A stretch of 62,955 nucleotides of DNA from Planctomycetota bacterium (GCA_022563015.1 JADFOF010000001.1:1-62955); one strand, 5' to 3'; counted from the stretch's first letter, positions 18,960-44,253 are shown. The notes: generated by a model not told the origin, from the letters alone. Translations and numbers: made by a program.

Positions 18960-19130
18960 ACCTCCCAATCGTGCAAGATCGGCGGGAGTGATTCGTTGAA
19001 CGTGTGAACTCGTGTCGGCGCTTATGGTGCGCTCGAACACGACCCCGGAGCCGGGATCGGCGCGTCCGTGGATTCAGACTCGCCGGGTGTACGATGGATT
19101 CCTGATTCAAGACGGACACCGCAACTTCGT

Positions 19131-21985: not shown

Positions 21986-21996
21986 GAGTCGAAGCG

Positions 21997-27790: not shown

Positions 27791-28467
27791 CCACCAGCCG
27801 CGGCGATGTGGTGCGCGCGGGCCGACTGCTCGGTGTCGGCGGCGGGATTGCCGCGCTGATGCTGGCGCTGTACGTGCTCGTCGCGTCGGTATCGGGTGTG
27901 TCGCTGATCTCGGCGCTGCTCGTGCCGACCACGAGCCCAAGCGAAAGTCCTGCGGATTCCCTTCCGGCAGGGCAGGATCGGCTCTCGGATTACGTCGCGC
28001 AGATCGATGGGCGCACCATGTTCTTCACACCCGCGCCACCTCCGCCACGGCCGGTGTTTGCAGCCAACAACCAGGACGGACCCGACGTGGATCCACCCCC
28101 GGCACGTTACGGCGGGCCGAGCGTGATCGGGCTCCTCAACGACATGGTCTGGTTCTCCGACAAGCGGCAGGCGATCGTCGGGGGCGAGGCGGTGGGGGAT
28201 CTGCGCGTGATTTCGACCGACGCCCCGTGGAGCGTGACGGTGAAATGGCAGGGCGTGGAGTTCGACGTGCCATTCCTGGCGCGGGACAGCGTCGTGCTGG
28301 CCGGCGACGAGGAGTCCGCGCGGGCCGAGGCTCTCGGTCCGATCGAACTGGCCTTGAGCGAACCCGGTCGTGCCGAGTCGGCCGCGTCAGAGCCCACGCC
28401 GGGCAACGAACCAGAAGTTGACCAGACAATTCCGCCAGCGGGCGTTCAGCCGGGAGACCAACGATGA
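27787..28467 (+). CDS. GspC/PilP-like protein
   Basis: ATG at 27787 (ATGA overlap). TM GGGIAALMLALYVLVASV, a proline-rich linker, then SVIGLLNDMVWF...GDLRVIS HR-like domain directly upstream of the secretin. Confidence 0.55.
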   Translation: MTTSRGDVVRAGRLLGVGGGIAALMLALYVLVASVSGVSLISALLVPTTSPSESPADSLPAGQDRLSDYVAQIDGRTMFFTPAPPPPRPVFAANNQDGPDVDPPPARYGGPSVIGLLNDMVWFSDKRQAIVGGEAVGDLRVISTDAPWSVTVKWQGVEFDVPFLARDSVVLAGDEESARAEALGPIELALSEPGRAESAASEPTPGNEPEVDQTIPPAGVQPGDQR

Positions 28468-30845
28468 TGAACTTCAACCGCTTCTCATGGACGATTCGCG
28501 CCGCGTGTGGCACCCTTGCGGCGCTGACGCTCGTGTGCGGGCAGGCGTTGGCGTTTCAGGACGAGGGAGACGCCCAACCTGACCGACGTGACGAGCGGGG
28601 TCGTCGCATTCTGAGCGGCCCGGACACGGTGCTCGCGTTCAAGAACGTCTCCATCGATCAACTCGTGCCGTTCATCGTCGAGGCGACGGGCAAGGTCGTC
28701 CTGCCCCAGAGCGACGTCCTGACGCGGCGGATCACGATCCTGAATGATCGGCTGATTCCGCGCCAGCGTGCGCTCGATCTGATATTCCTCGCGCTGCAGC
28801 AGGAGGGGATCGCGGTGGTCGAGACCGCCGAAACGATCACGCTTCGCGACATCACGGAGATCGATCGCCAGGACGTGCCGGTTCTGGGGTCCGAAGAGTC
28901 CGTGCTCGATCGTCGCGACTACGGCACGATCGTCGAGAAGGTCTTCGGGCTGAGCAACTCGACCGCGGAGACGATGGGCGACCTGCTCGAGGACATGATT
29001 CCGGACTACGCGAAGCTGACGGTCGACGAGGAGTCCAACCAGGTGGTGGTGATGGGGAACATCGCGCTGCTGCAGCGGATGGAGCGGCTGATCGCTTCGC
29101 TCGACCGAGATCGCTCGGACGCGGTGCAGACGGAGACGTTCCGCCTCCGCTACGCCGACGCCGAGCAGGTCAAGGAGAACATTGAAGAGCTCTACGCGGC
29201 TGACACGGGCCAGGGCGCCGGCAATCAGGCGCGAGGCAACCAGCGGACTCAGCAACAAGTTCGGTTCAACTTCGGCGGCCGGGGCGGGGCCGGCACCAGC
29301 GCCGGCGATTCGAACTCGTCAAATCCATCGGAGAATCTGCGCGTCAGCGCCAATGTTCAGCAGAACTCGGTGACGGTTGTCGCCGAGCCGAGCATACTGG
29401 CGCAGATCCGCGGCCTGATCGAGAACGATTGGGACGTGCCGATCGTGAAGGCAGAGGTCGTTCCCAAGGTGTATACCCTGCTGTATACGGATCCGATCAA
29501 GGTCGCCGATGCGCTTTCAGAGCTCTTCGACGACGAAGATGTGAACCGGCTGGCGGGGCAGTTCTCGTTCCAGCCGCTGGCGGATTCAAACCAGCTGGTC
29601 GTGCTGACGAAGTCGCCGGACAACATCGGCGTGGTTGACGAGATGATCGCCCAGATCGACAGGCCGCAGACCGTGGGGTTGCCGGCGATCGTCGAACTCA
29701 AGCACTCGTCCGCGGAGGAGGTGGCCGAGCAGCTCAACGCCCTGCTGGCGCAGGACGGCACGATCGCCCAGCTGCCCCGGTCCGAGACGGGGCTCGCCGC
29801 CGGGTCGTCCAACATCAGTCCGTTCTCGAGCACCGCGGACGACACTCAGACGCAGGACAACCAGCCGCAGGTGGACGTGATCCAGTTCTGGTGGCAGCGA
29901 TCGAGGCCGCCCACCGACGAGCGCGGGCCATCGAACCTTATCTCTCAGATCCGCATCGTCCCTGTGTGGCGTCAGAACGCGCTCATGGTCCTGGCCCCGC
30001 CGGAATACAAAGAGTCCATCGTCAAGCTGATCCAGGATCTCGACAAGCCGGGGCGGCAGGTGATGATTCGGGTCATCATCGCGCAGGTGTCAACGGACGA
30101 CTCGACGGCGCTGGGGTTCCGTTGGTCCAGCGATGCAATCAATCTGCAGACGGGCGACAACTCGATCCGGTTCGGGATCGGTGCGAATGCGACGGAGAAC
30201 AACCTCCTCGGCAATGCGTTCGATACGTCGGTGCTGAACGTGAACACCGACCTGAACGTCGTACTCCAGGCCCTGGCCCAGAACACGAGCGTGAACATCC
30301 TCACCTCGCCGGAGATCTTCACGAGCGACAACCAGGAGGCTTCTTTCTTCGACGGGCAGGACATCGCGTTTCCGGTGTCCGTCCAGACGTTTGATACAGG
30401 GGCGGTGACCGTGAACACGGACTACCGCGCGGTGGGAATCCAGCTTCGCGCCCGCCCTCGGATCACGCCCAGCGGCGACGTGGATCTGCGCGTCAATATC
30501 CAGGTCTCCAGCATCGCGCCCGGTCAGATCGTCAACGGCAGCATCGTGGTCGACCGGAGCGAGGCCACCACTCAGCTCATCGTCAAGAACGGCCAGACCA
30601 TCGTGCTCTCGGGAATCAAGCAGAGCGAGGACACGGAGATCATCCGCAAGGTGCCGATCCTGGGCGACATCCCGATTCTCGACTGGTTCTTCAAGTCCAA
30701 GGAAACGATTGCGGTCGAGTCCGAGCTGCTCTTCTTCATCACGCCGTACGTCGTCGAGAACACCGGCGAGCTGGAAAAGCTCAACCAGCCCTACATAGAC
30801 ACGCTGGACAGGCAGCGGGCCGAGAAGGAGAACGAGGGCCAGTGA
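28464..30845 (+). CDS. gspD: type II secretion secretin GspD
   Basis: Signal peptide, N0-N3-like repeats, C-terminal secretin core (ILTSPEIFTSDNQEA...VLSGIKQ...RKVPILGDIPILDWFFKSK). Confidence 0.92.
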   Translation: MMNFNRFSWTIRAACGTLAALTLVCGQALAFQDEGDAQPDRRDERGRRILSGPDTVLAFKNVSIDQLVPFIVEATGKVVLPQSDVLTRRITILNDRLIPRQRALDLIFLALQQEGIAVVETAETITLRDITEIDRQDVPVLGSEESVLDRRDYGTIVEKVFGLSNSTAETMGDLLEDMIPDYAKLTVDEESNQVVVMGNIALLQRMERLIASLDRDRSDAVQTETFRLRYADAEQVKENIEELYAADTGQGAGNQARGNQRTQQQVRFNFGGRGGAGTSAGDSNSSNPSENLRVSANVQQNSVTVVAEPSILAQIRGLIENDWDVPIVKAEVVPKVYTLLYTDPIKVADALSELFDDEDVNRLAGQFSFQPLADSNQLVVLTKSPDNIGVVDEMIAQIDRPQTVGLPAIVELKHSSAEEVAEQLNALLAQDGTIAQLPRSETGLAAGSSNISPFSSTADDTQTQDNQPQVDVIQFWWQRSRPPTDERGPSNLISQIRIVPVWRQNALMVLAPPEYKESIVKLIQDLDKPGRQVMIRVIIAQVSTDDSTALGFRWSSDAINLQTGDNSIRFGIGANATENNLLGNAFDTSVLNVNTDLNVVLQALAQNTSVNILTSPEIFTSDNQEASFFDGQDIAFPVSVQTFDTGAVTVNTDYRAVGIQLRARPRITPSGDVDLRVNIQVSSIAPGQIVNGSIVVDRSEATTQLIVKNGQTIVLSGIKQSEDTEIIRKVPILGDIPILDWFFKSKETIAVESELLFFITPYVVENTGELEKLNQPYIDTLDRQRAEKENEGQ

Positions 30846-32116
30846 GGAGAGCCCGCGTGGTGATGCGTCTGTGCTCTGTTCTCGCAGCGGTCGCGATGTT
30901 GGCCGGGTGCCAGGTCGAGGTGTCTCGCCGGCCGATCGGGCGAGGGGCTCGATCGGCCGAGCCTCGTGTCGAGATGCCGACCGGACCCATCGCAACCCTG
31001 CGTGCGAACGTCACGACGAGCGCTCGGATTCGGCTGGAGATCACGCCTGTCGGGGTGGTTCGCTACGACGGGCAGGTGCTGCCGATGCTCTCGCCGAACG
31101 GTCGATTCCTGGCGGTGCAAGAGGGTGCCGCGCCGACCTGGCCGACGCTGCTGGCCGCCGACGGCGCCGTCCCGCCACTCCGCACGCGGATCGCCGTGTA
31201 CGAGATCACCGATCGCCGGCTGCATCGCGTCGAGTTCGCGTTGCAGCTTCCGACCGGGCTCTTGCTCGGGCGATCGGCCGGCGAGAACGGGTTTCTTGTC
31301 GAGTCGCCCAGGCCCGACGGCTCGCGGTGGATCGGGCTGGTCGATTGGGTCGCCGGCGGCGTCGAGTGGCTGGTCCGCGACCAGCACGTCAATGCCCATG
31401 CGGTCTTCACCCCCACGGGCCACCTCGTGTACGCCAGACGCTCCGTCGGTCAGCCCGCCGTTTCGCTCGTGATGCGGGATCGATTCGGCAATGTGGATGT
31501 GCAGTCGAGCGACGAGGCCTCGGCCATGTTTCCGTTGTGCACCGATGAGCCGGGCGTTGTCTATGTCTTCGCCCAAGAGGACGGCGAGTTGATCGTCCGG
31601 GCGATTCACATCGTCGAGAGCTCGATCAGACGCGACGCGTTCGTTCTCGGATCGATCGAGATGCAGCGACGGATCGCGTCCAACGCGCCGGCGACGCTGG
31701 CCTATCAGTGTCTCGCGGGGGTGGGGTACGGCCTGCCGGCCGGAGACCAGGACGCCTCATTGCTCGAGCTGCCCGTCGTGTTCTTCCATCCCCTCCTGAA
31801 GCGTCTGGTGGCGATGGATCGGCGAGACGGGAGCTTCGGCACATTCCCGGAACGATCCTTCGCCGCGGCCCGATCCCGGTTCCAGGACACGCCCGGGTAT
31901 TTCGTCGCGACGCCGAACGAGCTGTTTTTCTCGATGCTTCGGAGCGGCCCGTTCAGCGCTGAACCGGTGCGATCCGCACGGGCGCTCGACGACGCCTACA
32001 TCCCGCGCGCCAGCACGAACCCCGATCTGCCCCTGGTCGTGTTCGGCCCCAGCGATCGAGATCCGTACGAACTCGCGGTGCTGCGCGTGACGATTCCGCG
32101 CCCGGATCAGAACTGA
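30842..32116 (+). CDS. lipoprotein co-transcribed with the secretin (function unknown; pilotin or accessory candidate)
   Basis: GTG start in a GTGA overlap with gspD. Lipobox VAMLAGC. No recognisable motif. Repeat-like beta-rich sequence. Confidence 0.6.
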   Translation: MRRARVVMRLCSVLAAVAMLAGCQVEVSRRPIGRGARSAEPRVEMPTGPIATLRANVTTSARIRLEITPVGVVRYDGQVLPMLSPNGRFLAVQEGAAPTWPTLLAADGAVPPLRTRIAVYEITDRRLHRVEFALQLPTGLLLGRSAGENGFLVESPRPDGSRWIGLVDWVAGGVEWLVRDQHVNAHAVFTPTGHLVYARRSVGQPAVSLVMRDRFGNVDVQSSDEASAMFPLCTDEPGVVYVFAQEDGELIVRAIHIVESSIRRDAFVLGSIEMQRRIASNAPATLAYQCLAGVGYGLPAGDQDASLLELPVVFFHPLLKRLVAMDRRDGSFGTFPERSFAAARSRFQDTPGYFVATPNELFFSMLRSGPFSAEPVRSARALDDAYIPRASTNPDLPLVVFGPSDRDPYELAVLRVTIPRPDQN

Positions 32117-32177: not shown

Positions 32178-34214
32178 CTACCGACTGTGATGGTGCATCG
32201 CCAGGTCGATCCAGGCGTCGCTCTTGGCGCTCTCGGACCGAAGCACCGCGGCGCGGCGGCCGGACGACCACTGAGCCACGCCCCACAGAACTCTCGCTGC
32301 CAGGCGTCGAACCGTGCCGCGCGTCGAACGTGTGAGCGCGACGAGCAGTTTCAGACCGTGACGAGCCACCAGCTGGTCTTCGAGCGATATGTAGGTCTCC
32401 GCGAGCCCGGGATCGCCCTGCCGACCCGCGCGGCCGTAGAGCTGACGATCGACGCGGGACTCGGCGTGCCGTTCCGTGGCGATCACCACCAGGCCGCCCA
32501 GCTTGCGCGTTGTGTCGTCGATGATGATATCGGTGCCGCGACCGGCCATGTTCGTCGCGACCGTCACGGCGCCGGAGCGACCCGCCTGGGCCACGATCTG
32601 AGCCTCTTCCGCCTCGCGTGTCGCGTTCAGGATTCGGCACGGCACGCCGCGATCACTGAGCATCTGCCCGAGTCGTTCCGATGAGGCGACGCTGCGCGTG
32701 CCGATGAGCACCGCCCGCCCCTCGTGGTGCAGCGACTCGGTGCGCTTTGCGACGGCTATGAACTTCTCCGCCTCGGTCGTGAACACGCGGTCCCCGGCCT
32801 TGGCGCGGATCACGGGCCGATGCGTCGGCACGCGCACGACCCGCAGGCGGTAGTACTTCCAGAGCTCATCGGAGACCTCCCACGCGGTCCCGGTCATGCC
32901 GCTCAGCTTGCGGTAACGCTGGAAAAACCGCTGGTAGCTCACGCGGGCGCTCGTGACGCGCTCGTCGCTGAGATCCAGTTCTTCCTTGGCCTCGACGGCC
33001 TGGTGCACACCGAGCTGCCACTGTCGTCCGTCGAGCAGCCGTCCGGTCGAGCGGTCCACGATGATGAGCTTGCCCTCCTGGACGATGTAGTCGTCGTCCC
33101 TGACGTACAGCTCCCGCGCGGAGATCGCGCGCACGAGCAACTCCTCGCTGCGCCTTGGTCCCGCCCAGAACGGGGGCAACTCCCCGGCCAGCCCGGCCAG
33201 CTTGTTCCGCCCGGCGTCGGTCAGGCGCACCGTGTGCTGGCGTTTATCGACGGTGTAGTCGTGCTGCGTCTCGAATCGCCCGGCGAGTTCAGCCGCGATG
33301 CGAAAGTGCATGGTCCGCTGCCGGGTGGCGTCGTCGGGCAGTTCCTGGGCAATGATGGCCGGCGTCACCGCCTCGTCGATGAGCACGCTGTCCGCCTCGT
33401 CCACGATCGCCGCGTTCAACCCGCGCTGCACGACCATGTCGCCCCAACGGTGGCCTGGCGTGACCTGACTCTCCCGCGTGAGTTCATCCAGGAGCAACGA
33501 GGCCAGCCGCGGGTTCAGCGGCGACACGAGGCGGTCTCTCAGAAAGTCGAAGATCACCTGCTTGTCGGCGGCGTAGGTGACACACCTTGCGTACGCCTGC
33601 TTCCGCTCCAGCTGCGGCATCCCGTCCTGAAGCACCCCGACGGTTATGCCCAGCCGCCGAAATACCGGGCCTGTGATCCGGGCGTCGCGGTCGGCGAGAT
33701 AATCGTTCACGGTGATGACGTGCAGGCCCCGTCCGATCCAGCCCTCGATGGCGGCGGGCAGCACCGCCGTGATCGTCTTCCCTTCGCCGGTGGCCATCTC
33801 CGCGCAGCAGCCGCGCGACATCGCCAACGCCCCCATGATCTGCTCGACGTGCAAAGTGAGCCCGACATGGCGTCGAATGGCTTCGCAGGCCACGGCGTAG
33901 GCCTCGCCCAGCGATTCGCCGGTCGTTCCCACGCACAGCACGGACGCCCTGCACTCATCCACAACCGCGTCGAACGCCGCCTCGCTCAGCTTCGAGTGCG
34001 CCGCCGCTCGGCCGGCGATTCGTTCCGCCTCGCGACGGTCTCTCGCTGGGGCGCGCCGACGAAGCGCACGCGCCGCCAGTCGCTCCGCGATGGCGTCGGC
34101 ACCCCGCGTCGGCGTCGTGCGGACAAATGGCCGGGCCAGCGATGCCCAGAGACGATCATCGACACGCTGATCGTCCGCGCCCCGTACCGAGATGCTGCCC
34201 GACAGCAGGCTCAT
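32178..34214 (-). CDS. SecA-like ATPase, C-terminally truncated (NBD1, PPXD, NBD2 and a short helix only)
   Basis: EMATGEGKT (Walker A), VDEADSVLIDEAVTPAII (DEAD), LSGMTGTA, VLIGTRSV, ATNMAGRGTDI and GGLVVIATERHAESRVDRQLYGRAGRQGDPG all match SecA motor motifs. Ends about 70 aa after NBD2. ATGA overlap with the upstream gene. Confidence 0.85.
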   Translation of the reverse strand: MSLLSGSISVRGADDQRVDDRLWASLARPFVRTTPTRGADAIAERLAARALRRRAPARDRREAERIAGRAAAHSKLSEAAFDAVVDECRASVLCVGTTGESLGEAYAVACEAIRRHVGLTLHVEQIMGALAMSRGCCAEMATGEGKTITAVLPAAIEGWIGRGLHVITVNDYLADRDARITGPVFRRLGITVGVLQDGMPQLERKQAYARCVTYAADKQVIFDFLRDRLVSPLNPRLASLLLDELTRESQVTPGHRWGDMVVQRGLNAAIVDEADSVLIDEAVTPAIIAQELPDDATRQRTMHFRIAAELAGRFETQHDYTVDKRQHTVRLTDAGRNKLAGLAGELPPFWAGPRRSEELLVRAISARELYVRDDDYIVQEGKLIIVDRSTGRLLDGRQWQLGVHQAVEAKEELDLSDERVTSARVSYQRFFQRYRKLSGMTGTAWEVSDELWKYYRLRVVRVPTHRPVIRAKAGDRVFTTEAEKFIAVAKRTESLHHEGRAVLIGTRSVASSERLGQMLSDRGVPCRILNATREAEEAQIVAQAGRSGAVTVATNMAGRGTDIIIDDTTRKLGGLVVIATERHAESRVDRQLYGRAGRQGDPGLAETYISLEDQLVARHGLKLLVALTRSTRGTVRRLAARVLWGVAQWSSGRRAAVLRSESAKSDAWIDLAMHHHSR

Positions 34215-36421
34215 CGGTGCAGCCTCGCGTCCAGATACTGGGTGCCTCTGCGGAAGAGCTGCGCGGCGAGCGGCTCGCGGGCCAGGCCGAACCGCACCCG
34301 CGCACGCACACCCGGCTGGGCGCTCGAAACAGGATTGTCAGTGCTTTCGTCGGCCTCGATCTCGATGAGCCAGTGCGTCTCCATCGCCACGAGTCGCCCG
34401 GACTGCGACGGCTCGACAGCGATCGAACCCGCGGTCAGCCTCGCGTACGCTGGGTTCTGCAGGTCGCGCGTGCCCATCGTCGCGCGGCTGGTGATCGTTC
34501 CGGGAACGCTCTGTCCGGCATGACCCCGCACGCGCACCGTGACGCTTGGGCTAGGCTCCGCGCCCGCGAGGATGTGCGCATAGCTGCGGTCAGGCACGAG
34601 CGCCCGCACCACCAGTTCCGGGCTGGATACGAATCCGATGAGCGCGCCGTGCGGCAGGTATCGGCCGACGATGTTGTCGAAGTCGACCGCCGTGCCGTCC
34701 GACGGCGCGACAACGCCCGATATCGGCGCCCGCAGCACCAGCGCGTCCAGGCGCTGTGCCACGCGATCGTATTGGAGCTGGAGCTGCTGGCGCGCCGCCA
34801 GGGCGACCTCGAAGTCCAGCGCCGGGCCGGACATCGCCTCATCGACCTGACGCTGCGCCCGATCCAGCTGCGCGCCAAGGCGAGCGGCCTCGGCCTGGAG
34901 CTCGGGGCTCTGAAGCGTGACCACTGGATCTCCCTTGGCGACGTGCTGGCCCGCTCGGGCCACTATGCTCCGCACAAACCCGGACTCGCCCGCCCGGAGC
35001 GGCGCGGCGTGCTTAGCCTCGACGATCGCGGGCGCATACTCGGCCGACGACACCGGCACCAGGCCCAGCCCGACCAGCGGTATCCCCACCGCGGTCATCG
35101 ACACCAGGCACGCCCGCCCGCGCCGTCCGAGCAGTTTCGGCGACGACGCGAGATACCCGATCACCTTCAGCACCGGCCACACCAGCCACATCGCGGCCAT
35201 CATGCCGCCCAGCAACAACCCGAAGGCGGCGTAACGATCCATGATCAGCAGCACGATCGAGAGGCCGATGAAGATCCGGTACGGCGTGGATAAGAGGCCG
35301 AACACGGTGAGCACCGTCGCCTCGGTCCGATCGCGCACGCGCGGCGGCTGGCTGCTCTTGAGCCCGAACATGTAACGCTCGATGAGAAATCGGAGGAGAT
35401 CGCGGCTTCGTTGCGACAGGTTCGGCGAGCCGACCAGATCCGACAGAATGTAGTACCCGTCGTAGCGAAGCAGCGGGTTGAGATTGAAGAGCAACGTCGA
35501 CACGCCCGAGATGATCATCACCTGGTACGCGATTCCAACGAGCGTGGGCGACACAGCCGGGTCGGCCAGCGCCCAGTAGATGCCGGCGATCGCAGCCACG
35601 AGCGACTCAACGATCACCCCGGCTGCGGACACGAGCACGCGGGGCCGGATCCGCGCGAAGCGCCACGCCGTGGTGGCGTCGCAGTAGGGCAGCGGCAATA
35701 CACCGGCGATCATGATGACTCCGATCTCCGTGCTGCGCCCGCCCATCGCCTTGCACGCCGCGGCGTGTCCCATCTCGTGGATCGCTCGAAGCACGAGGAA
35801 CACGGCGCCCATCGCCGCCATGCCGCGCGGATCGAGCGCGAGCAGGCCCGCAAACTCGTCGCCGAAACGACCCGCGCTGCGGATCAGCAGATACGCCGCG
35901 ACAGACATCGTCACCAACCAGACCAGGGCGCCCCACCGCGAGAAGATCAGCTCGACAACCCGCCTGTGCCGATCGAGGAACGGCTCCGGGTTATACAGCG
36001 GGATGTTCCAGAAGACCCACATCCCGGTGCGTCGCTTGACGCGCGTCTCTCTCGCTTTCAGCTTGCGTTCCAGCACCATATCCGCGGCGAGTTCGTTGTC
36101 GCCCAGGAGCAATCCGAACAGTTGAAGTTGAGAGAGCAGCTGGACACACTCGCGCTGGGTCGGCGCTTCGTCGCCGAGTTGTGCATTGCACGCGTTCCAC
36201 GCGTCGTCGACGGTCCGACGCCCATCGAGCAGGCCGACAAAGAAGTACGCCGACTCGCTCAGCCGGTAATACTGCCCGCTGGCCGGATCCTCGACGATGT
36301 ACGCGATCGTCGGGCCGTACCGCTGGCGAATGATATTGGCGTGCGGCGTCAGCCTCGGGCGGGACTCCGCCACGCGGTACCAGATGTCGCTGAACGTGGC
36401 TCCGACTTCTTCCCAGGGCAC
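34211..36421 (-). CDS. fusion protein: PqqD-like N-domain, M50 (site-2-protease-like) membrane metalloprotease, and HlyD-type periplasmic adaptor
   Basis: HEMGH encoded at 35765-35779, NLNPLLRYDGYY third-ligand motif, N-terminal YYRLSESAYFFVGLLDGRRTVDDAW (PqqD/RRE-like). C-terminal lipoyl, coiled-coil and beta-barrel MFP-like region. Confidence 0.8.
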   Translation of the reverse strand: MPWEEVGATFSDIWYRVAESRPRLTPHANIIRQRYGPTIAYIVEDPASGQYYRLSESAYFFVGLLDGRRTVDDAWNACNAQLGDEAPTQRECVQLLSQLQLFGLLLGDNELAADMVLERKLKARETRVKRRTGMWVFWNIPLYNPEPFLDRHRRVVELIFSRWGALVWLVTMSVAAYLLIRSAGRFGDEFAGLLALDPRGMAAMGAVFLVLRAIHEMGHAAACKAMGGRSTEIGVIMIAGVLPLPYCDATTAWRFARIRPRVLVSAAGVIVESLVAAIAGIYWALADPAVSPTLVGIAYQVMIISGVSTLLFNLNPLLRYDGYYILSDLVGSPNLSQRSRDLLRFLIERYMFGLKSSQPPRVRDRTEATVLTVFGLLSTPYRIFIGLSIVLLIMDRYAAFGLLLGGMMAAMWLVWPVLKVIGYLASSPKLLGRRGRACLVSMTAVGIPLVGLGLVPVSSAEYAPAIVEAKHAAPLRAGESGFVRSIVARAGQHVAKGDPVVTLQSPELQAEAARLGAQLDRAQRQVDEAMSGPALDFEVALAARQQLQLQYDRVAQRLDALVLRAPISGVVAPSDGTAVDFDNIVGRYLPHGALIGFVSSPELVVRALVPDRSYAHILAGAEPSPSVTVRVRGHAGQSVPGTITSRATMGTRDLQNPAYARLTAGSIAVEPSQSGRLVAMETHWLIEIEADESTDNPVSSAQPGVRARVRFGLAREPLAAQLFRRGTQYLDARLHR

Positions 36422-36455
36422 GTTTCGTTCCTCACTGCGTTCCCGGCGGTCACAC

Positions 36456-38408
36456 TCACACCCAAAGCCACATGCGCAGCCTGTCGATGATCGGCCGAAA
36501 AATCGTGCTCAAAGGCGATCGACGCACCATCGATCCGTCCCGCTCGACGCCGAGCTTCACCGACGCGCTCATGCCCGGCGACAGAGCCACGCCCGCGGGA
36601 ATGGTCAGGATCTCGGCCTCGACCTTGTACACGTTGGCCCCTTCGACCGGCTCGGCGACCGGGCTGATGTGCGAGACGCGCACGCGGATCTTCGCACCCG
36701 GGCTCCCCTTGAGGACCATCGTGCCGGTCTGGCCGATCCGCACGTCCGTGATGTCCCGCTCATCGACATCAATGGCGGCGATGTTCTCGCTGCCGACGAT
36801 AATGAACAGCGGCGTCGTCGGCTCGACCCGCGCGCCCACCAGCGCTTCAAGATCGCCCTGCGCAACCGTTCCCGTGAACGGGGCCCGGATCAGGGCGTGC
36901 TCCAGCCGATACGTGACGATTCCCAGCCTCTGTTCGAGCGCCGCGATGTCATCAGACAGCGACTCGGCCTTGGCCTGCTGGCCGGCGCGCAGTGCGTCGT
37001 CGCGTTCGGTTCTGTACCGTTGCCGCTCCGCTTCCAGCCGGGCATGCTCATAGGTCAACTCCTGCGTATCAAGCGCGGCGAGCGGGTCGCCCTGTTCCAC
37101 CTCATCCCCGGGGCGCACATACACCTCAGCGAGGTGGCCCTCGAACGGGGGCACAATGGTGCGAGACAGAAGCGCCTTGATCTCAGCCGTCGCCGATATC
37201 TGCTGGGGAAGCCACGGGATCGAGCCCACCACGAGCGCGATGGCTGCGGCCATTCCGAGCAGTTTCTTGCCCGTGTGCCGCGGTCCAACGATCGCTCGGC
37301 ACAGATCCATCGTGCGGTCGCGCGTCACTGCCAGCACGCCGCGATCCGCCATGCGCCGTGTCCACAGGGCCGGGCCGATGAACTCGGCAACCAGCCGCAG
37401 CAAGGTCGCGGATCCGGGCGGGAAGGGGTTGTCCGCCGGGCGCTCGAGCACGACTACCCCGACCAGATCGCCCTCGACGCGCAGCGGAAGACTCAGTATG
37501 CTCGACGGACCGAACTGCGCGCTCAGCTTCTCATGCGCCCGCGTCACGCGGCGATCGGCCGGGTTCAGTTCGCTTTCAGGCGGCGGCGGGAAGATCACCT
37601 CGATGTCCTGATCGGCGCACTCGTCCATGGCGTTCTCGATCCCCCCGACCGCGACGCCGCGACGATCGAGGTGGTCCACGCCGCTGAGCGCCGTCAGGCG
37701 GATCTGTTCGCCGCGGATCAATCCAATCGAGACGCGCGAGCACCCGAACCGCCGCTGAAGCTCGTGGCACATGAGCGAGCCCATCACCTCGGCGTTGCTT
37801 CCTTGCTGCGAGGCGTCGAGCAGCTCGAGGGTTTCGCGCAGCCGGATCCTCTGCTCCGTCTCGCTCATCGCGCGCTGGCGCCACAGGAAGGATTCGAGGC
37901 GCGCGGTGGTTAGTTCGAGTCGGCTCAGCGCCTCTTGCGGCGACACCGTGCTCTCGTTGGGTTGAATGAGGATGAACGCGCCCTCGGTCCGTCCTTCCGC
38001 CACGATCGGGCATGCGAGCGCGCGGTGCGTCGGTTTCGCGTCGTACATCGCCGATTCGGTCAGGCGGATCGGATGCACGTCGCCGCCCTCGGCTCCCGCC
38101 GCCACATCGCGCCCGATGCGTTCGATGAGCGACCGGATTCTCCCGTTGGGAGCGAGCGCCGCGTGCAGTGGCTGCGCCGCCGGGTCGTCCATCACAAAGA
38201 TGGCCGCGATGCCCCCTTGACGGGTCTCGGTGCCGAGCAGCACGACCACGCCCCCGATCGCCCCGACGAGACCGCTCTGGTATTCGAGCAGGGACTGGAG
38301 GAAGACCCGCAGGTCGGCCATCGGGTCCGAGGGCGCGGCCCGGCCAGCGGCTAATTCACCGGCCGGGAACCTCGCTTCGGTCGCTTCGCTCGGCTTGGCG
38401 GTGCTCAT
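36456..38408 (-). CDS. tandem GAF domains, TM, and HlyD-type membrane-fusion protein
   Basis: Two cytoplasmic GAF-like regions, TM LLGMAAAIALVVGSIPWL, then an HlyD-like lipoyl/coiled-coil/barrel region (GDPLAALDT...IRAPFTGTV). Confidence 0.75.
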   Translation of the reverse strand: MSTAKPSEATEARFPAGELAAGRAAPSDPMADLRVFLQSLLEYQSGLVGAIGGVVVLLGTETRQGGIAAIFVMDDPAAQPLHAALAPNGRIRSLIERIGRDVAAGAEGGDVHPIRLTESAMYDAKPTHRALACPIVAEGRTEGAFILIQPNESTVSPQEALSRLELTTARLESFLWRQRAMSETEQRIRLRETLELLDASQQGSNAEVMGSLMCHELQRRFGCSRVSIGLIRGEQIRLTALSGVDHLDRRGVAVGGIENAMDECADQDIEVIFPPPPESELNPADRRVTRAHEKLSAQFGPSSILSLPLRVEGDLVGVVVLERPADNPFPPGSATLLRLVAEFIGPALWTRRMADRGVLAVTRDRTMDLCRAIVGPRHTGKKLLGMAAAIALVVGSIPWLPQQISATAEIKALLSRTIVPPFEGHLAEVYVRPGDEVEQGDPLAALDTQELTYEHARLEAERQRYRTERDDALRAGQQAKAESLSDDIAALEQRLGIVTYRLEHALIRAPFTGTVAQGDLEALVGARVEPTTPLFIIVGSENIAAIDVDERDITDVRIGQTGTMVLKGSPGAKIRVRVSHISPVAEPVEGANVYKVEAEILTIPAGVALSPGMSASVKLGVERDGSMVRRSPLSTIFRPIIDRLRMWLWV

Positions 38409-38469
38409 CGACGGGTGCTACCGACCTCCCACTGATCGAAGCCTGTTCAACCGTGTGTCGAACAGCCGC

Positions 38470-38811
38470 TCAGTCGGCCAGCTTCGGCCCGTCACTCTCC
38501 TCGGCGGGCTGACTCGGGCCGGGCAGGCGGATCTCACCGTTGCGCTCCTCATATTGGCGGACCACCTGCCCCAGCGTGATCGCCAGTCGCTTGGCCCCCC
38601 CCCAGTTCATGATGATGCGGCTGCCGACGTTGAACATCAGGGCGGCCTGATTGTCCGGCCCCTGCACCGGCAGGTTCATACCGAAGTCCATGACGACCTC
38701 GTCCGTCGTGGTTGACGTACGGATCGTGTTCGCATACGTCGAAACCATCTTCGATTCGTCGATGCGGAGCTGGATCTGCTGGGTCTTCGGCTGGTCCTGG
38801 TTCTCGGCCAT
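38470..38811 (-). CDS. DUF3467-family small protein
   Basis: 113 aa. YANTIRTSTTTDEVVMDFG core resembles the DUF3467 signature as I recall it. AGGGGA Shine-Dalgarno upstream. First gene of the operon. Confidence 0.65.
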   Translation of the reverse strand: MAENQDQPKTQQIQLRIDESKMVSTYANTIRTSTTTDEVVMDFGMNLPVQGPDNQAALMFNVGSRIIMNWGGAKRLAITLGQVVRQYEERNGEIRLPGPSQPAEESDGPKLAD

Positions 38812-38939
38812 GGTGGCGTCCCCTGTTGGCTTGGTCGGTCCCGTGCAGACCGATGCGGTTGATCTCTATGCGTGAGGCAGTGTGCCCAAGCCGGGATCGC
38901 GCCCGGCCCGGCGGAAGCACAGCTTAGCCACGCCCCATG

Positions 38940-38984
38940 ACGGATCCACACCAATGCACACGGATCCACTTCGGCACCGGATCC
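38940..38984. promoter_or_regulatory. direct repeats ACGGATCCAC x2 (20-bp phase) plus a third CGGATCC, upstream of the DUF3467 operon
   Basis: ACGGATCCAC at 38940-38949 and 38960-38969, CGGATCC at 38978-38984. Located 130-175 nt upstream of the start at 38811. Confidence 0.35.
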
Positions 38985-39155
38985 CCGCTCCGGCGGACAC
39001 GGCACGTCCTTCGACGCCGGCCCTTGCTCCTGCCGGGGATGGCGAGGCGACAGGAGGGCCCACGGGAGCCCCGCTCGCACGTTCCATACGCTTCTCGTTC
39101 GGCCTCGGTTCCGGGTCGCAAAGCCTGCCCGTCGCCGATCTCGCGTGTGGCGGCG

Positions 39156-39965
39156 CTACCGGGCGGGCACCACGCGCTCAGTCGGCGCCATGCCCGGCGG
39201 GGGCAGACGCAGGTACCGCGTCAGCACCCGGACGCCGATGTAGAACGGGATCGTGTCAACCAGCGCCACGATCAGCTTGAACACGTATCCCGTCGCGACG
39301 AGCGCGAGCACCAACAAGAGTGTCTTGTCGCCGCTGGCCAGATCGGCCGCGAACGTGATGAAGATCACCGCGACCGTGTCCACGAACTGGCTGACCAGCG
39401 TGGAGCCGTTGTTCCGCAGCCACAGATGCCTGCCACCCGTCAGGTTCTTCCAGAAGTGAAAGAGCTGGACATCGATGAGCTGCGCGGCCATGTAGGCGAT
39501 CATGGAGGCGAGGACGGCTTTCATCGCCAGATCCTTGACCTGGAAGAACGTCTCGCCGTCGTTGGGACTGAACCCCGGATCGAAGCCCGGCCAAGCCCCT
39601 CCGAGCCACAGAATGAATACAACCCAGACGTTGAGCACCAGTCCGATGAACACGACGAAATTCGCTCGCCTTCTGCCGAACAGTTCCGAAATGAAGTCCG
39701 TGCAGAGGAAGGTGACGGGGTACGGCAGCACGCCCACCGCGATCGCCAGCGGGTACTTCCACTCGCTCGAACCCTCGATGAAGAACGCCAGGTTCAGGAA
39801 CCGGGTGATGCCCAGGATGTTGAGCATGGTCAGCGAGCCGAGGAACAGCCCCGCGAACAGCACAAACACTCGCTCGCGTCGGTCGTGCAGCTGACGCGGC
39901 GTCAACACCGGCAGGTCGGTGTATCGGTGCTGGTCTGTCGGCAGTGGGGCGTGGTCGGACGACAT
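39156..39965 (-). CDS. yhhQ: queuosine-precursor transporter (YhhQ/DUF165 family)
   Basis: Polytopic membrane protein with YPVTFLCTDFISELFGRRRAN, the conserved YhhQ-family motif. Confidence 0.8.
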   Translation of the reverse strand: MSSDHAPLPTDQHRYTDLPVLTPRQLHDRRERVFVLFAGLFLGSLTMLNILGITRFLNLAFFIEGSSEWKYPLAIAVGVLPYPVTFLCTDFISELFGRRRANFVVFIGLVLNVWVVFILWLGGAWPGFDPGFSPNDGETFFQVKDLAMKAVLASMIAYMAAQLIDVQLFHFWKNLTGGRHLWLRNNGSTLVSQFVDTVAVIFITFAADLASGDKTLLLVLALVATGYVFKLIVALVDTIPFYIGVRVLTRYLRLPPPGMAPTERVVPAR

Positions 39966-40086
39966 GAGTGCCTGGGACTCCTCACCGCCGGCTGGCGTGC
40001 CACCCGCGGATCCGCTGGGCGTGACGACACGAAGACCTCTTGGGCGGCAATATACCGTTCAATGGCCCGGGGTGGTAGCATCACGC

Positions 40087-40713
40087 ATGGACGTTCAGAC
40101 CCACCAGAGAGAATCCACCACGCCGCACGCCTCGGTCACGGACCAGGCGGGCCTCTCGTGCGAGCCCACCCGCACGACCCCGGCCGATCTGGCGCCTTCG
40201 ATCGAGGCGGTCCTGCTCACGCTCGAGCGGCCGATCTCCGCCCTCAGGCTCGCCGAGGCGCTCCATGTCGCCTCGGAGGAGGCTCCGGGCGCCACGTGTA
40301 TCGAGCGGGCGATCAAGGACCTCAACGAGCAGTACGCCCGGAATGGTCGCTCGTTTCGAATCGAGAAGGTGGCCGGGGGCTTCCGGGTGATGACGCTGGC
40401 CCAGTTCGCTCCCGTGATCGCAGCGTTTCACGCCTCGCGCACGCAGACGAAACTCTCCCGCGCCGCGATCGAGACCCTGTCCGTCGTCGCCTACAGGCAG
40501 CCGATCACCCGCGCGGACCTCGAGGCCATCAGGGGAGTCTCGTGCGGCGACGTGCTCCGCTCGCTGATCGAGCGGCGACTGGTGACCATCACCGGGCGGG
40601 CGGAGGAGCTGGGCCGACCGATGCTGTACGGCACGACGAAGTCATTCCTGGATCTGTTCGGGCTGGCATCCACGAAGGATCTGCCGCCCGTCGCGGAGTT
40701 TCTCGGCTCATGA
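40087..40713 (+). CDS. scpB: segregation and condensation protein B
   Basis: IEAVLLTLERPIS..., LSRAAIETLSVVAYRQPITRADLEAIRGV..., GRPMLYGTTKSFLDLFGL. ATG at 40087 chosen to avoid overlap with yhhQ. Confidence 0.85.
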   Translation: MDVQTHQRESTTPHASVTDQAGLSCEPTRTTPADLAPSIEAVLLTLERPISALRLAEALHVASEEAPGATCIERAIKDLNEQYARNGRSFRIEKVAGGFRVMTLAQFAPVIAAFHASRTQTKLSRAAIETLSVVAYRQPITRADLEAIRGVSCGDVLRSLIERRLVTITGRAEELGRPMLYGTTKSFLDLFGLASTKDLPPVAEFLGS

Positions 40714-40765
40714 CGCTCGCGCTGCACGATCGTCACGCCCGACGCCGGCGAGCGAGACGCCCGTC

Positions 40766-42031
40766 GTGGCCGAGATGACCAGCCCCGCATTGAGCAAGAG
40801 GGTCAAGCTGGCCCGGCAGTACCACTTCGTCTCCGGCGGCGTGCTGTATGTCGCGGTCACCACGCTGCTCATGCTCGGGGCGTTGAACAGCCAGAACAAC
40901 CTGTTGTTCGCGGCGTTGGGGATCGCGATGGCGGGGCTTGTCGTGTCCGGCGTGCTGAGTGGCGCGGCCCTGCTGGGCGTCCGGGTCGAGCGTGTGTCGG
41001 TGTCCGATGCGGGCGTGGGGCGGCCGATGACCATCCGATACACGGTCCGAAACGTGAATCGTGTTGTTCCCGCGTTCGCCCTGATCGTCGAGGAAGTGCA
41101 CACGAAGTCGTCGACCTGGAATCGCCATCTGTCGCAGCCGCGCGCGTTCGTCGCCCACGTCGGTCCCGGGCAGGAGGTCGAGTGTGAAGCCGTCGTCTGG
41201 CCGTCCACACGCGGGACGCCCGTGTTCGACGCGGTCCGCGTCTGGTCATCGTTCCCGTTCGGGATCGCCAAGAAATCCGTCACTCAGCGGACGCGCTGGG
41301 ACCGGACGGTGGTGCGGCCGCTCGTTCTTCCCATGCGCGACGCGCTGCTCCAGCGGCCGAGTGGTTCGACCGAGGCGGGCTTGCGTTCGTCGCGCAGGCC
41401 GGGCAGCGGCGACGAGTTCTTCGGCTTGCGCGAGTTCGTCCCGGGCGACCAGCTTCGGCACATCGCGTGGCGGGCCACGGCGCGGACGGGAAAGGTGCTC
41501 GTCACCCAGTCCGCCTCGCCGGTGCCGGATCGATTATGGGTGATTCTCAGGCTCGACGCCTCCAGCGAGTTCCGCGCGTCCAACGAGAGGGCGATCGCGT
41601 TGGCAGCCAGCATCGCAAGTCGGGCCGGACGCGACGCCACGATGGTCGGCCTGGAAGCACCGCTGGTCGGGCTGTCCATCCCACCCGGCGCCGGTTGCCG
41701 CGCGGTGGATCGACTCCTGGACGCACTCGGTCGGCTTAGCCCGTCGGCGACGGTGGGGGGGAGCGGCTCTGTCGTATCCACGGCGGTTGGACCGCGCGAC
41801 AACGCGATCGTCGTGCACGCGGGAGAGGTCGATTCCGCGTTCGGCCCGCGACACGCCCGGCACATCAGCTCCGACGAGATCGAGCAGTGGGTTTCGGACA
41901 AAGACACGATCCAGCTGCTCGAGCAGCTCGCCGGCGGGCAACCGGCGGCCACTCGTCCCGTCGTGCTCGCCCGCCGCTTCGAAGCGTGGGCGGCTGCGCT
42001 TCTTACGGGGAACCAGGAGCGCGTCGCGTGA
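40766..42031 (+). CDS. DUF58-domain protein (vWA-like, MoxR-system-associated family)
   Basis: Two N-terminal TM segments and GSGDEFFGLREFVPGDQLRHIAWRATAR, the DUF58 signature. Confidence 0.8.
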   Translation: MAEMTSPALSKRVKLARQYHFVSGGVLYVAVTTLLMLGALNSQNNLLFAALGIAMAGLVVSGVLSGAALLGVRVERVSVSDAGVGRPMTIRYTVRNVNRVVPAFALIVEEVHTKSSTWNRHLSQPRAFVAHVGPGQEVECEAVVWPSTRGTPVFDAVRVWSSFPFGIAKKSVTQRTRWDRTVVRPLVLPMRDALLQRPSGSTEAGLRSSRRPGSGDEFFGLREFVPGDQLRHIAWRATARTGKVLVTQSASPVPDRLWVILRLDASSEFRASNERAIALAASIASRAGRDATMVGLEAPLVGLSIPPGAGCRAVDRLLDALGRLSPSATVGGSGSVVSTAVGPRDNAIVVHAGEVDSAFGPRHARHISSDEIEQWVSDKDTIQLLEQLAGGQPAATRPVVLARRFEAWAAALLTGNQERVA

Positions 42032-44253
42032 ACCAGTACCGCCGATTCCGTCAAGTAACGCTCGCGGTTGTGCTGCTTTCGATCGCGGTGTATTGCGTGG
42101 CCGCCGGCGATGTCGGGTTGGCGCTCATCGCGCTCCCCGGAGCAGCGGGCGCGTGGTGGTTCCGCACGCGATCAGTCGCGGCGCGTGTGCCGCGCCTGAT
42201 GCTGAATCTCGCACTGCTCGCGGCGATTCTGTATATCGCGATGCTCACGCTCCGTCGCGGTATCGTGCTCGATCGCGTCGCGGAGCTCATGGCGATTCTG
42301 TCCGTGATCAAGTGCTTCGATCGCACCAGCGCGCGCGACTACGTGGAGCTGTACATCCTGAGCGTGTTTCTCGTGATCGCGACGGTCATGACCAGCGTCC
42401 GCCTCGAGGTGGGCCTCATCCTGATCGTCTATGTCCCGGTTCTCGTGGTTGGTGTGATGCAGCTGCAGATCTACGCCGCGCATGAACGCGCCCTGATCGC
42501 CTCGCGACGCCGGGCGCCGCCCTGGGCGAGGCCGCTGCGCCCCAAACGAGCGGTCGGACACGGGGTCTCGGTGCAGTTTCGGGCCACGGCCACAGCCCTG
42601 GTGCTCAGCGGTGTTACGGTCGCCATCGCCGTGTTTGTGCTCATTCCAAGAGAGATCGGCGAGAACTTTCTGCACACGGCGGCCGGGTCGCCACGTGGCA
42701 TGAGGACGTCCTTCACGGGCGAGATCCAGCTCGGAAGGGCCGGGCTCCTCACCGAATCGCTCACGCCGGTTCTGCACGTGGCCGTTTCCAACGACGCCGG
42801 TGAGAATCTCGGTGGGCCGGCGATTGTCTATTACCTGCGCGGCAATGTCCTTGGTTCGTACGACGCCGCCACCGGCGCGTGGACGCGCCGTCAGGATTCG
42901 GGTCCAGCACGGAGCTGGCGGGTGCAAGCGGACGCGTGGCATCAACTGACTGGTGCAACGGGGCAGTTGCTGCGCCAAGAGATCACGTTGCTCGGCGCCG
43001 GGGACCAACAGACTTACGTGTTCAACGTGTATCGCACGGCCAGGATTCGGTTCGACCGCACGGTCATTCTCGACTCGCGCAGCGACGAGCGAATCGTGAT
43101 CCCGGATCATCGCGGCGAGTTGAAATACGAGGTCGAGTCTTTCATTCAGGCGCCCCGCGCCGAGGAAGATGGGCGGCTGCGCGAGGTTTCCTTCCCCTCG
43201 CTGGTCGTCCGCACTCTCACGGAATCCGTCCTGGCGCCGGCGCAGATCCCTACGGCCGGCGATCAGCGCGACCGTCTCACCGATCGACAGGCCGTGATCG
43301 CCATACGCGACTTCCTGCACACGCAGTTCACATACACGACGGACATACAGGCGCCGCCGACCGGTCAAGACCCCATCGAGTGGTTCCTTGAGGATCATCG
43401 TGAGGGGCACTGCGAGTATTTCGCGTCTGCGATGGCGGCCATGTGCCGGAGCATCGGGATCGAAGCCAGGATCGTGACCGGCTACGTCGCGATGGAGTGG
43501 AATGAAACTTCCGGCCAGTATGTTGTGCGAGAGCGCAACGCGCACGCGTGGGTGGAGGTGCGAGACCGTAGCGGCGTGTACCGAACCTATGACCCGACGC
43601 CCCCGGATGATCTGCGGGCCGTGCACGAGCCGCAACGCGGGCTCAGGGCTCGCCTGAGGAGCCTGATGGACGCGATGGAGCACCTGTGGGTCTCCCGCGT
43701 TGTGACCTTCGATTCCGGAATGCGCGACACGCTCATGCAGGACGGCGGCGGGTTCGAGTCAACCCTGTTCAAGTCGGCGCGAGCGCTGGTCGGAAGAACG
43801 CAACTGGCCGGATTGTCGTTGCTCGTTCAGGCGGTATTCGTCGGCACGCTCGTCTGCCTCGTGGTCATTGCCGTCGGCATATTTGTGCGCGCCGTTGTGG
43901 CCAAGAGGGCCCGTCGTCGTCGGCCGGGTGCGGGCGCCGCGGGTGCGGAATCGTCGCCCGACGCGCCGTGGCTGGAGCGGACCGACTTCTACGATCGGCT
44001 CCTGCGGCTGTTCACCGCGCGCGGCTGCCCCAAGCCGATGCACCGTCCACCCCTCACGCACGTGGACCTCATCAAGGACGCGAACCCGGATCTTGCGGGC
44101 GGAGCCGAGCGGCTTGTGAGCCTTTTCTACCGCGCGCGATTCGGGCGCCGGCCCATCAGCGCGGACGAACATCGGGCGGCGATTCGGCTCGTTTCGCGGC
44201 TGGAACCGGGCGCCGATATCGAACCATACGTCCGAGAAGTGGCGCGTTCGTAA
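42028..44253 (+). CDS. membrane transglutaminase-like protein (DUF3488 plus transglutaminase core)
   Basis: GTG at 42028 in a GTGA overlap. Multiple N-terminal TM segments. GHCEYFASAMAAMCR...NAHAWVEV...YDPT gives a Cys-His-Asp core. Confidence 0.82.
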   Translation: MNQYRRFRQVTLAVVLLSIAVYCVAAGDVGLALIALPGAAGAWWFRTRSVAARVPRLMLNLALLAAILYIAMLTLRRGIVLDRVAELMAILSVIKCFDRTSARDYVELYILSVFLVIATVMTSVRLEVGLILIVYVPVLVVGVMQLQIYAAHERALIASRRRAPPWARPLRPKRAVGHGVSVQFRATATALVLSGVTVAIAVFVLIPREIGENFLHTAAGSPRGMRTSFTGEIQLGRAGLLTESLTPVLHVAVSNDAGENLGGPAIVYYLRGNVLGSYDAATGAWTRRQDSGPARSWRVQADAWHQLTGATGQLLRQEITLLGAGDQQTYVFNVYRTARIRFDRTVILDSRSDERIVIPDHRGELKYEVESFIQAPRAEEDGRLREVSFPSLVVRTLTESVLAPAQIPTAGDQRDRLTDRQAVIAIRDFLHTQFTYTTDIQAPPTGQDPIEWFLEDHREGHCEYFASAMAAMCRSIGIEARIVTGYVAMEWNETSGQYVVRERNAHAWVEVRDRSGVYRTYDPTPPDDLRAVHEPQRGLRARLRSLMDAMEHLWVSRVVTFDSGMRDTLMQDGGGFESTLFKSARALVGRTQLAGLSLLVQAVFVGTLVCLVVIAVGIFVRAVVAKRARRRRPGAGAAGAESSPDAPWLERTDFYDRLLRLFTARGCPKPMHRPPLTHVDLIKDANPDLAGGAERLVSLFYRARFGRRPISADEHRAAIRLVSRLEPGADIEPYVREVARS

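Follow-up and report, generated by a model that had tools for sequence, protein, structure and literature searches.

A conserved operon that joins an RRE-M50 protease-adaptor fusion to a truncated SecA-like ATPase, a candidate secretion machine for giant LEPR-XLL proteins

A stretch of 62,955 nucleotides (called the window throughout) from a Planctomycetota metagenome-assembled genome (MAG), which is Phycisphaerae-type and 97% identical to JADFGU010000036, contains an operon of four minus-strand open reading frames (ORFs) running from 38811 to 32178. They encode, in this order, a DUF3467 protein, a GAF-domain protein fused to a periplasmic adaptor (GAF-adaptor), an M50 protease that carries a PqqD-like RRE domain and is likewise fused to an adaptor (M50-adaptor), and a truncated SecA-like ATPase. 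With moderate confidence we propose that these four genes provide the inner-membrane and periplasmic core of a machine dedicated to secreting giant LEPR-XLL surface or secreted proteins in one step. We see about an even chance that it represents an unnamed type of secretion system, in which a TolC-coupled adaptor conduit is combined with a SecA-derived motor working without SecYEG and with an RRE-guided M50 protease to export and process giant LEPR-XLL proteins of up to ~13,000 residues; such a system would be frequent among Planctomycetota (Phycisphaerae) and would occur in rhizobia, roseobacters and methanotrophs as well. The proposal rests on domain content, on intact catalytic and ATPase motifs, on gene order and on adjacency to genes for giant LEPR-XLL proteins and TolC-family proteins. 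The module formed by these genes is real, widespread and apparently undescribed, and from it we infer a function as secretion machinery.

The genes for DUF3467 and the GAF-adaptor are separated by 61 nt and those for the GAF-adaptor and the M50-adaptor by 34 nt, and the start codon of the SecA-like gene overlaps the stop codon of the M50-adaptor gene as ATGA, as read directly from the sequence. This layout of four co-directional minus-strand genes had been described in an earlier note on the same DNA and was confirmed from the ORFs and the sequence (coordinates in Table 1). Domain searches also agreed with the note's view of the SecA-derived motor as the sole ATPase of the operon (Pfam and NCBIfam) and of two distinct HlyD-like proteins, one fused to M50 and PqqD domains and one fused to GAF (Pfam). 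No ABC, RND, MFS or TolC genes were found in the operon or in the flanking ORFs scanned (~24-48 kb); the note's claim that pump and TolC genes are missing is therefore correct for the window operon and the scanned flanks, but does not hold for TolC across the family, since orthologous clusters encode a TolC-family protein. Hundreds of conserved homologues were found for each of the four operon proteins. An AGGGGA Shine-Dalgarno-like element is located ~8 nt ahead of the DUF3467 ATG, and the promoter is presumed, from sequence, to lie in the intergenic region upstream of this gene, although a search of the operon region returned no sigma-70 consensus or promoter. The operon contains no significant internal terminator and no match to an Rfam family.

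The M50-adaptor protein is composed of the cytoplasmic RRE domain, a membrane domain and a periplasmic adaptor. The membrane domain has seven transmembrane (TM) helices and a re-entrant beta-hairpin according to a hydropathy scan and an AlphaFold2 (AF2) model of the fusion (predicted local distance difference test, pLDDT, of 86); both M50 motifs are placed by the model in TM helices, as in site-2 proteases, with the re-entrant beta-hairpin between them. Although the Pfam M50 score stayed under the gathering threshold (20.2 vs 27.2 bits), the HExxH and NxxPxxxxDG motifs were invariant in 70 M50-adaptor sequences. The RRE was modelled as a three-strand, three-helix winged-helix fold (strands 29-35, 38-44 and 51-54; helices 56-64, 71-85 and 89-101). 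RRE domains bind the leaders of ribosomally synthesised and post-translationally modified peptides (RiPPs), and by analogy the RRE domain of the M50 fusion would bind a peptide leader. In the periplasmic part, the modelled alpha-hairpin has ~25 residues per helix, and Foldseek matched the adaptor to MexA, AcrA and MacA at E~1e-13 over ~290 columns, with ZneB and EmrA likewise among the matches.

Among curated families, the RRE-M50 portion comes nearest to RiPP leader proteases: the NCBIfam model daptide_HExxH matched residues 41-414 with E=4e-42, and YydH/LiaK matched with E=5e-6. Together with the presence of a PqqD/RRE fold, these matches favour a RiPP-like system for small peptides, in which the RRE would bind the leader of a short precursor for cleavage by the M50 protease and the product would leave through the adaptors. 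However, the scores were below the equivalog cutoffs (144.6 vs 300 bits for daptide), neighbour clustering over 80 loci (ORFs of >=50 aa) brought up neither a small ORF nor a modifying enzyme as a conserved neighbour, the gene conserved beside the module in Proteobacteria encodes a giant protein and not a peptide, and a short peptide needs no processive polypeptide motor. We consider a small-peptide system very improbable.

The SecA-like protein consists of NBD1, PPXD and NBD2 only (Pfam SecA_DEAD, SecA_PP_bind and P-loop_SecA). It aligns to residues 33-557 of the 841-residue B. subtilis SecA, which bears out the truncation noticed earlier, and ends ~50 residues later; it therefore has no counterpart of the scaffold, the wing, the two-helix finger or the C-terminal region. 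The protein scored under every NCBIfam SecA and SecA2 cutoff, the best SecA scores being 541 bits for NF006630 (cutoff 862) and 533.5 bits for NF009538 (cutoff 814). The ATPase motifs as well as family-specific motifs were kept across 27 SecA-like sequences, among them an N-terminal extension specific to the family, in which R21, W23, G38 and D40 are invariant, and a short helix conserved at the C-terminus. Nearly all of the best 150 representatives of 50%-identity clusters were ~620-700 residues long, and the N-terminal GxD motif was retained in members sharing just 37% identity; judged from these sequences, the family of truncated SecA-like proteins is large and deep. A metagenome scan with a distant truncated member (P0434) retrieved canonical SecA loci only, at 41-42% identity. 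The housekeeping secA is chromosomal in Rhizobium, Mesorhizobium, Ensifer and Methylosinus, all of which have SecA-like orthologues on records of a plasmid collection. An unusual giant fusion of 4,930 residues in the representative library (P0407) carries a SecA-like motor at residues 3019-3555 (31% identity). Several GenBank and RefSeq records call the truncated SecA-like protein 'prepilin peptidase', probably a propagated misannotation.

In the GAF-adaptor protein a cytoplasmic N-terminal domain (residues ~30-190) is followed by the GAF domain, one TM helix and a periplasmic adaptor of the periplasmic adaptor protein/membrane fusion protein type (~401-650). The adaptor region matched Pfam HlyD_D23 and HlyD_3 as well as RND_mfp (84 bits), and the nearest PDB sequences were MacA and EmrA; like that of the M50 fusion, it is a full adaptor fold with an alpha-hairpin. 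The N-terminal domain of ~150 residues gave sub-threshold matches to SpoVT_C (E=0.009-0.13) and, in one homologue, to GAF (E=0.002). Two GAF domains had been proposed in the earlier note; one of them is well defined (residues 208-348), whereas the second copy is represented by weak, sub-threshold GAF-like signals only. The GAF domain may couple the activity of the machine to a cytoplasmic signal.

The DUF3467 protein (Pfam PF11950, 63 bits vs a cutoff of 25) is the best-conserved protein of the operon, with 65-85% identity to its relatives, and its gene was found in 33 of 64 fetched loci. In Proteobacteria the gene is located directly 3' of the giant cargo gene (Sulfuritalea-type MAGs, Methylosinus, Mesorhizobium, Thalassospira and Pontibrevibacter), and the protein is a candidate cargo chaperone or adaptor. 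In the members from Phycisphaerales a variable linker rich in Gln, Pro and Gly leads to a conserved tail at the C-terminus, GP[KR]L[AS][DQ] (window 38470-38500); this tail, which resembles the docking tails of adaptor proteins, is not present in the proteobacterial homologues. Neither Foldseek nor a profile search of PDB sequences yielded a PDB match for DUF3467. The idea of a SecB-like chaperone was dropped, as a profile comparison with E. coli SecB (using an approximate sequence) gave no support.

To place the operon in a wider context, a one-genome-per-species collection was scanned for M50-adaptor relatives, which are encoded at no fewer than 593 genome loci, and synteny was counted in 80 fetched loci. 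By record title, these loci belong mostly to Phycisphaerales, Tepidisphaerales and other Planctomycetota, with single or few loci from MAGs labelled Sulfuritalea (Betaproteobacteria), Thermodesulfovibrionia, Verrucomicrobiota and Desulfobulbia; in Rhizobium, Mesorhizobium, Ensifer and Methylosinus, orthologues of the SecA-like protein are found on plasmids and other records of a plasmid collection. The GAF-adaptor gene was directly upstream of the M50-adaptor gene in 65 of 67 loci and the SecA-like gene directly downstream of it in 62 of 65, so that the gene order which the earlier note had suggested checking proved to be conserved, mostly among Planctomycetota. Record names for the components are inconsistent ('hypothetical protein', 'prepilin peptidase', 'DEAD/DEAH box helicase', 'PqqD family protein').

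The neighbourhoods also bear on a role in signalling by regulated intramembrane proteolysis, the usual role of site-2 proteases, in which the M50 enzyme would cleave a membrane regulator, for example an anti-sigma factor, with the adaptor and GAF parts serving as sensors. Genes for extracytoplasmic function sigma factors do occur near one relative (L001), but no sigma or anti-sigma gene emerged as a conserved neighbour from the clustering of the 80 loci, and the conserved partners are adaptors, TolC and the SecA motor; we attach hardly any probability to such a role.

The candidate cargo was identified from the genes next to the module. In Sulfuritalea and in two further MAGs (L069, labelled 'Proteobacteria', and L078, labelled 'bacterium'), the DUF3467 gene is preceded, at a distance of no more than ~180 nt, by the gene for a very large protein with RTX/Ig repeats; in Sulfuritalea the gap is 10 nt. 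On all six alphaproteobacterial plasmids examined, which come from cultured organisms, the module lies directly 3' of a giant gene. In Methylosinus sp. C49 the gene for an 8,847-aa giant is followed by DUF3467, GAF-adaptor, M50-adaptor, SecA-like, third adaptor and TolC; in Mesorhizobium ciceri (10,518 aa) by DUF3467, third adaptor, GAF-adaptor, M50-adaptor and SecA-like; in Pontibrevibacter nitratireducens (10,603 aa) by DUF3467, GAF-adaptor, M50-adaptor, SecA-like and third adaptor; in Pseudosulfitobacter sp. (12,918 aa) by GAF-adaptor, M50-adaptor, SapC, SecA-like and third adaptor; in Alisedimentitalea scapharcae (8,148 aa) by GAF-adaptor, M50 and SecA-like; and in Thalassospira marina (4,033 aa) by DUF3467, GAF-adaptor, M50-adaptor, third adaptor and TolC. 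The N-termini of four giants were read, and all four show a basic stretch followed by [LI]EPRxLL[SN]AD at residues ~40-58 and match NCBIfam NF012209 (LEPR-XLL, model 'LEPR-8K') over its cutoff; in a fifth giant the motif is found in frame just 5' of the annotated start. NCBI curates LEPR-XLL (NF012209) on giant proteins of ~8,000 residues without assigned machinery, and in the literature searched LEPR-XLL was mentioned in passing only, in two papers. The Sulfuritalea-type giants (L064 6204-7700 and L069 1490-2986) share, in addition, a non-repeat C-terminal module (...LAGDYAAV.FD...SLIRYG... and ...MLDRRAR.R...ID..AEKWLD...), which might serve as a further element for recognition or anchoring.

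The position of the leader at the N-terminus and its basic start, as in Sec signals, together with the strong homology of the motor to SecA and the closeness of the GAF-adaptor to MacA and EmrA, would also suit a two-step route, in which a SecA2-like accessory motor passes the cargo to SecYEG, the M50 protease acts as signal peptidase, and the adaptors and TolC expel a periplasmic intermediate in the way MacAB-TolC expels the enterotoxin STII. Yet the SecA-like protein lacks the very parts with which canonical SecA engages SecY (scaffold helix, two-helix finger and wing domain), and the translational coupling of its gene is to that of the M50-adaptor and not to a SecY-like gene. Moreover, the LEPR-XLL region has no obvious hydrophobic core, and it is difficult to picture a chain of 4,000-13,000 residues as a periplasmic intermediate. 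A two-step route appears quite improbable to us.

In 47 of the 80 loci, neighbour clustering also picked out a third adaptor, a free protein of ~290 aa bearing a signal peptide, which was not found in the window. TolC-family genes lie within the cluster in a Thermodesulfovibrionia (Nitrospirota) MAG and a Verrucomicrobiota MAG as well as on the Methylosinus and Thalassospira plasmids. The cargo genes of the source genome, its TolC-family gene and any third adaptor must lie outside the window. The SapC-family gene on the Pseudosulfitobacter plasmid is located at L093 16260-17081. A 2026 preprint on Chlorochromatium describes SapC and TolC genes adjoining giant proteins and mentions a recently acquired secA, Cag_1676 (10.64898/2026.03.19.712371); this arrangement may be a related system.

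In the one-step mechanism that we propose, the cytoplasmic RRE of the M50 fusion would bind the leader [LI]EPRxLL[SN]AD of the cargo, with DUF3467 possibly assisting leader recognition as a chaperone or adaptor. The SecA-derived motor, having kept its ATPase core and the PPXD polypeptide clamp and lost the SecY-docking parts, would dock on the M50/GAF membrane complex from the cytoplasmic side and feed the unfolded chain into it, and the M50 active site would cut the leader off the cargo. The adaptor domains of the M50 and GAF fusions, joined in many lineages by the third free adaptor, would form a tunnel to the TolC-family channel, and GAF might link activity to a cytoplasmic signal. The earlier note had envisaged that a peptide or protein is recognised, processed and moved across the envelope by means of a Sec-derived motor; this is supported by the synteny, the TolC genes, the third adaptor and the adjacent giants, with the difference that the likely cargo is a giant protein and not a small peptide.

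Several points weigh against secretion by such a machine. All the mechanistic steps were drawn from domain content and gene neighbourhood; we know of no M50 protease that translocates polypeptides, and no protein-conducting channel was identified in the module. The AF2 model of DUF3467, a protein whose role is tentative, was poor (pLDDT 54). The SecA-like gene is not directly downstream of the M50-adaptor gene in 3 of 65 loci (L055 and L060 were inspected; the 582-aa ORF in the SecA-like position of L055 is unrelated to SecA), and the cluster on Thalassospira marina pCSC3H3 (L092), a plasmid not among the 30 best SecA-like plasmid matches, leaves no room for a SecA-like gene. The motor may hence be dispensable or come from elsewhere. 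The 63-kb window contains no TolC-family gene, no LE(P)RxLL-coding sequence in any frame and no ORF of >900 aa, and since it encodes neither the motif nor a giant ORF, the cargo in Planctomycetota appears to be unlinked. Among the 80 loci, a LEPR-XLL ORF within 10 kb was found at a single planctomycete locus (Tepidisphaeraceae, 7 kb from the module); for Planctomycetota, the pairing of cargo with machine is for this reason extrapolated from Proteobacteria. Finally, an MsbA-related ABC exporter ends the gene string of the module in Sulfuritalea.

Some of these points favour a different role, in which the module processes, retains or releases the giant protein upon a signal, comparable to the control of LapA by LapG/LapD, while the giant itself crosses by an ABC-type type I secretion system (T1SS) or by Sec and the SecA-like protein serves as a cytoplasmic holdase or unfoldase. 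M50 enzymes are proteases and not channels, signal binding is typical of GAF domains, the RTX repeats of the cargo are typical of substrates of ABC-type T1SS, and the Sulfuritalea exporter and the Thalassospira cluster without a motor would both be accommodated; genes related to cyclic nucleotides or cyclic di-GMP near some clusters are anecdotal. On the other hand, an ABC exporter is encoded neither in the window nor in the six plasmid clusters, which are also free of RND and MFS genes. The Sulfuritalea ABC protein is MsbA-related (766 bits for TIGR02204 vs 323 bits for the HlyB-type model), is encoded 3' of a uridine-kinase-like gene and looks like an unrelated neighbour. Three adaptors plus TolC make up a complete conduit that would be redundant if export took place elsewhere, and the polypeptide clamp of SecA is conserved. 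We regard this role as unlikely, and each of the four alternatives fits the conserved set of partners less well than one-step secretion of the giant proteins. In Sulfuritalea (L064 14938-18256 and L081 9750-13072), three packed genes follow the third adaptor, encoding a 281-aa protein, the uridine-kinase-like protein and the MsbA-related exporter.

The true upstream neighbours of the operon are a Vut_1/YhhQ-type transporter gene and ScpB (Table 1); a 613-aa ORF at 38937-40778 (+) was rejected as a gene, being an arginine-rich wrong-frame artefact. They are followed on the plus strand by genes for a DUF58 protein and a TgpA-type transglutaminase with a DUF4129 domain (40766-44253), and farther along the window by those for a PilZ-like protein (44275-45249) and RNase Y (46618-48255). 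On the other side, a type II secretion-like cluster (19068-32116, +) converges on the operon; it was rejected as a conserved partner, as the adjacency is common only to the near-identical relative L004. Among the other loci, short ORFs beside the module in L001, L013, L016 and L019 were rejected as precursors (apparent wrong-frame artefacts or lineage-specific genes), and a 1,316-aa ORF 3' of the module in L083 is an HrpA helicase.

Table 1. Positions of the operon genes, their domains and motifs, and neighbouring genes in the window.
Feature	Residues	Window positions	Strand	Remarks
DUF3467 gene		38811-38470	-	113 aa
GAF-adaptor gene		38408-36456	-	650 aa
GAF domain	208-348	37365-37787	-	Pfam PF01590, 46 bits (match 214-348)
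TM helix of GAF-adaptor	~379-400	37209-37274	-	hydropathy scan
M50-adaptor gene		36421-34211	-	736 aa, GTG start
RRE domain of M50 fusion (cytoplasmic)	29-101	36119-36337	-	Pfam PqqD PF05402, 29.7 bits vs 23.4 cutoff
HELGH motif	215-219	35765-35779	-	M50 HExxH
NLNPLLRYDG motif	313-322	35456-35485	-	M50 NxxPxxxxDG
Periplasmic adaptor of M50 fusion with alpha-hairpin	456-736	34214-35056	-	HlyD domains, AF2 model
SecA-like gene		34214-32178	-	678 aa
Walker A TGEGKT	142-147	33774-33791	-	SecA-like
28-residue insert	231-258		-	SecA-like, relative to B. subtilis SecA
PPXD	301-408	32991-33314	-	SecA-like
Intergenic region, presumed promoter		38812..39155	-	345 bp 5' of DUF3467 gene; Vut_1-family gene ends at 39156
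Vut_1/YhhQ-type transporter		39965-39156	-	upstream neighbour
ScpB		39919-40713	+	upstream neighbour
GspK-like gene		24142-25461	+	type II secretion-like cluster
PilN-domain protein		25458-27197	+	type II secretion-like cluster
Secretin		28464-30845	+	type II secretion-like cluster
424-aa lipoprotein-like ORF		30842-32116	+	type II secretion-like cluster

If the proposal is true, secretion of the adaptor/TolC type gains a new kind of engine at the inner membrane, and the module would be the first case of a SecA motor at work outside the Sec translocon. The LEPR-XLL motif and DUF3467 would gain a function, and the export of adhesin-like proteins of 4,000-13,000 residues in plant symbionts, marine roseobacters, methanotrophs and Planctomycetota would be explained. 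Since the module is present on plasmids of cultured, genetically tractable Alphaproteobacteria, the proposal is directly testable. The full-text literature searched contained no description of the module, and no specific NCBIfam or PADLOC model matched it, in line with the earlier note's view that this composition corresponds to no characterised system.

Individual parts do have counterparts in known systems. Like the SecA2 systems of mycobacteria, Listeria, Clostridioides and the streptococcal aSec, the module employs a second SecA paralogue with the NBD1-PPXD-NBD2 core for special substrates. SecA2 proteins, however, have ~760-790 residues (model lengths) and keep the scaffold, whereas the module protein ends ~50 residues after NBD2, is partnered by an M50 protease and adaptors instead of SecY or SecY2, and belongs to diderm hosts. 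The RiPP leader proteases (daptide NF041824; YydH/LiaK NF058609) share the N-terminal PqqD/RRE joined to a HExxH intramembrane protease; the module protein differs from them in three additional TM helices and a full periplasmic adaptor, and no precursor or modification genes emerged as conserved from the neighbour clustering. In peptidase-containing ABC transporters with HlyD-like proteins, leader recognition, cleavage and export are united in one membrane machine with an adaptor, as we suppose by analogy for the module, but the latter would use an M50 instead of a C39 protease, recognition by an RRE, a SecA-like motor instead of an ABC nucleotide-binding domain, and cargo of thousands of residues.

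With the tripartite pumps (AcrAB-TolC, MexAB-OprM, MacAB-TolC and EmrAB-TolC) the module has the adaptor fold in common, which matches MexA, AcrA, MacA, ZneB and EmrA, and TriABC is a precedent for two distinct adaptors in one pump. The adaptors of the module are fused to a protease and to GAF, and none of the ABC, RND or MFS engines is present, the only inner-membrane engines listed by a comprehensive 2021 review (PMC8277102). In its outer half the module resembles both these pumps and T1SS (HlyB-HlyD-TolC; LapB-LapC-LapE with LapA); the latter likewise have alpha-hairpin adaptors, a TolC-family channel (for the module, encoded in some related clusters and not in the window) and a cargo gene adjoining the transport genes, the cargo being giant and repeat-rich with RTX calcium-binding repeats. 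The module departs from T1SS in having a SecA-derived motor as sole ATPase instead of an ABC transporter, an M50 protease as inner-membrane platform, and two or three distinct adaptors, of which two are joined to cytoplasmic domains. Moreover, although the Sulfuritalea-type giants also share a C-terminal module, the conserved motif of the cargo family is N-terminal (LEPR-XLL) and probably cleaved, whereas the T1SS signal is C-terminal and uncleaved.

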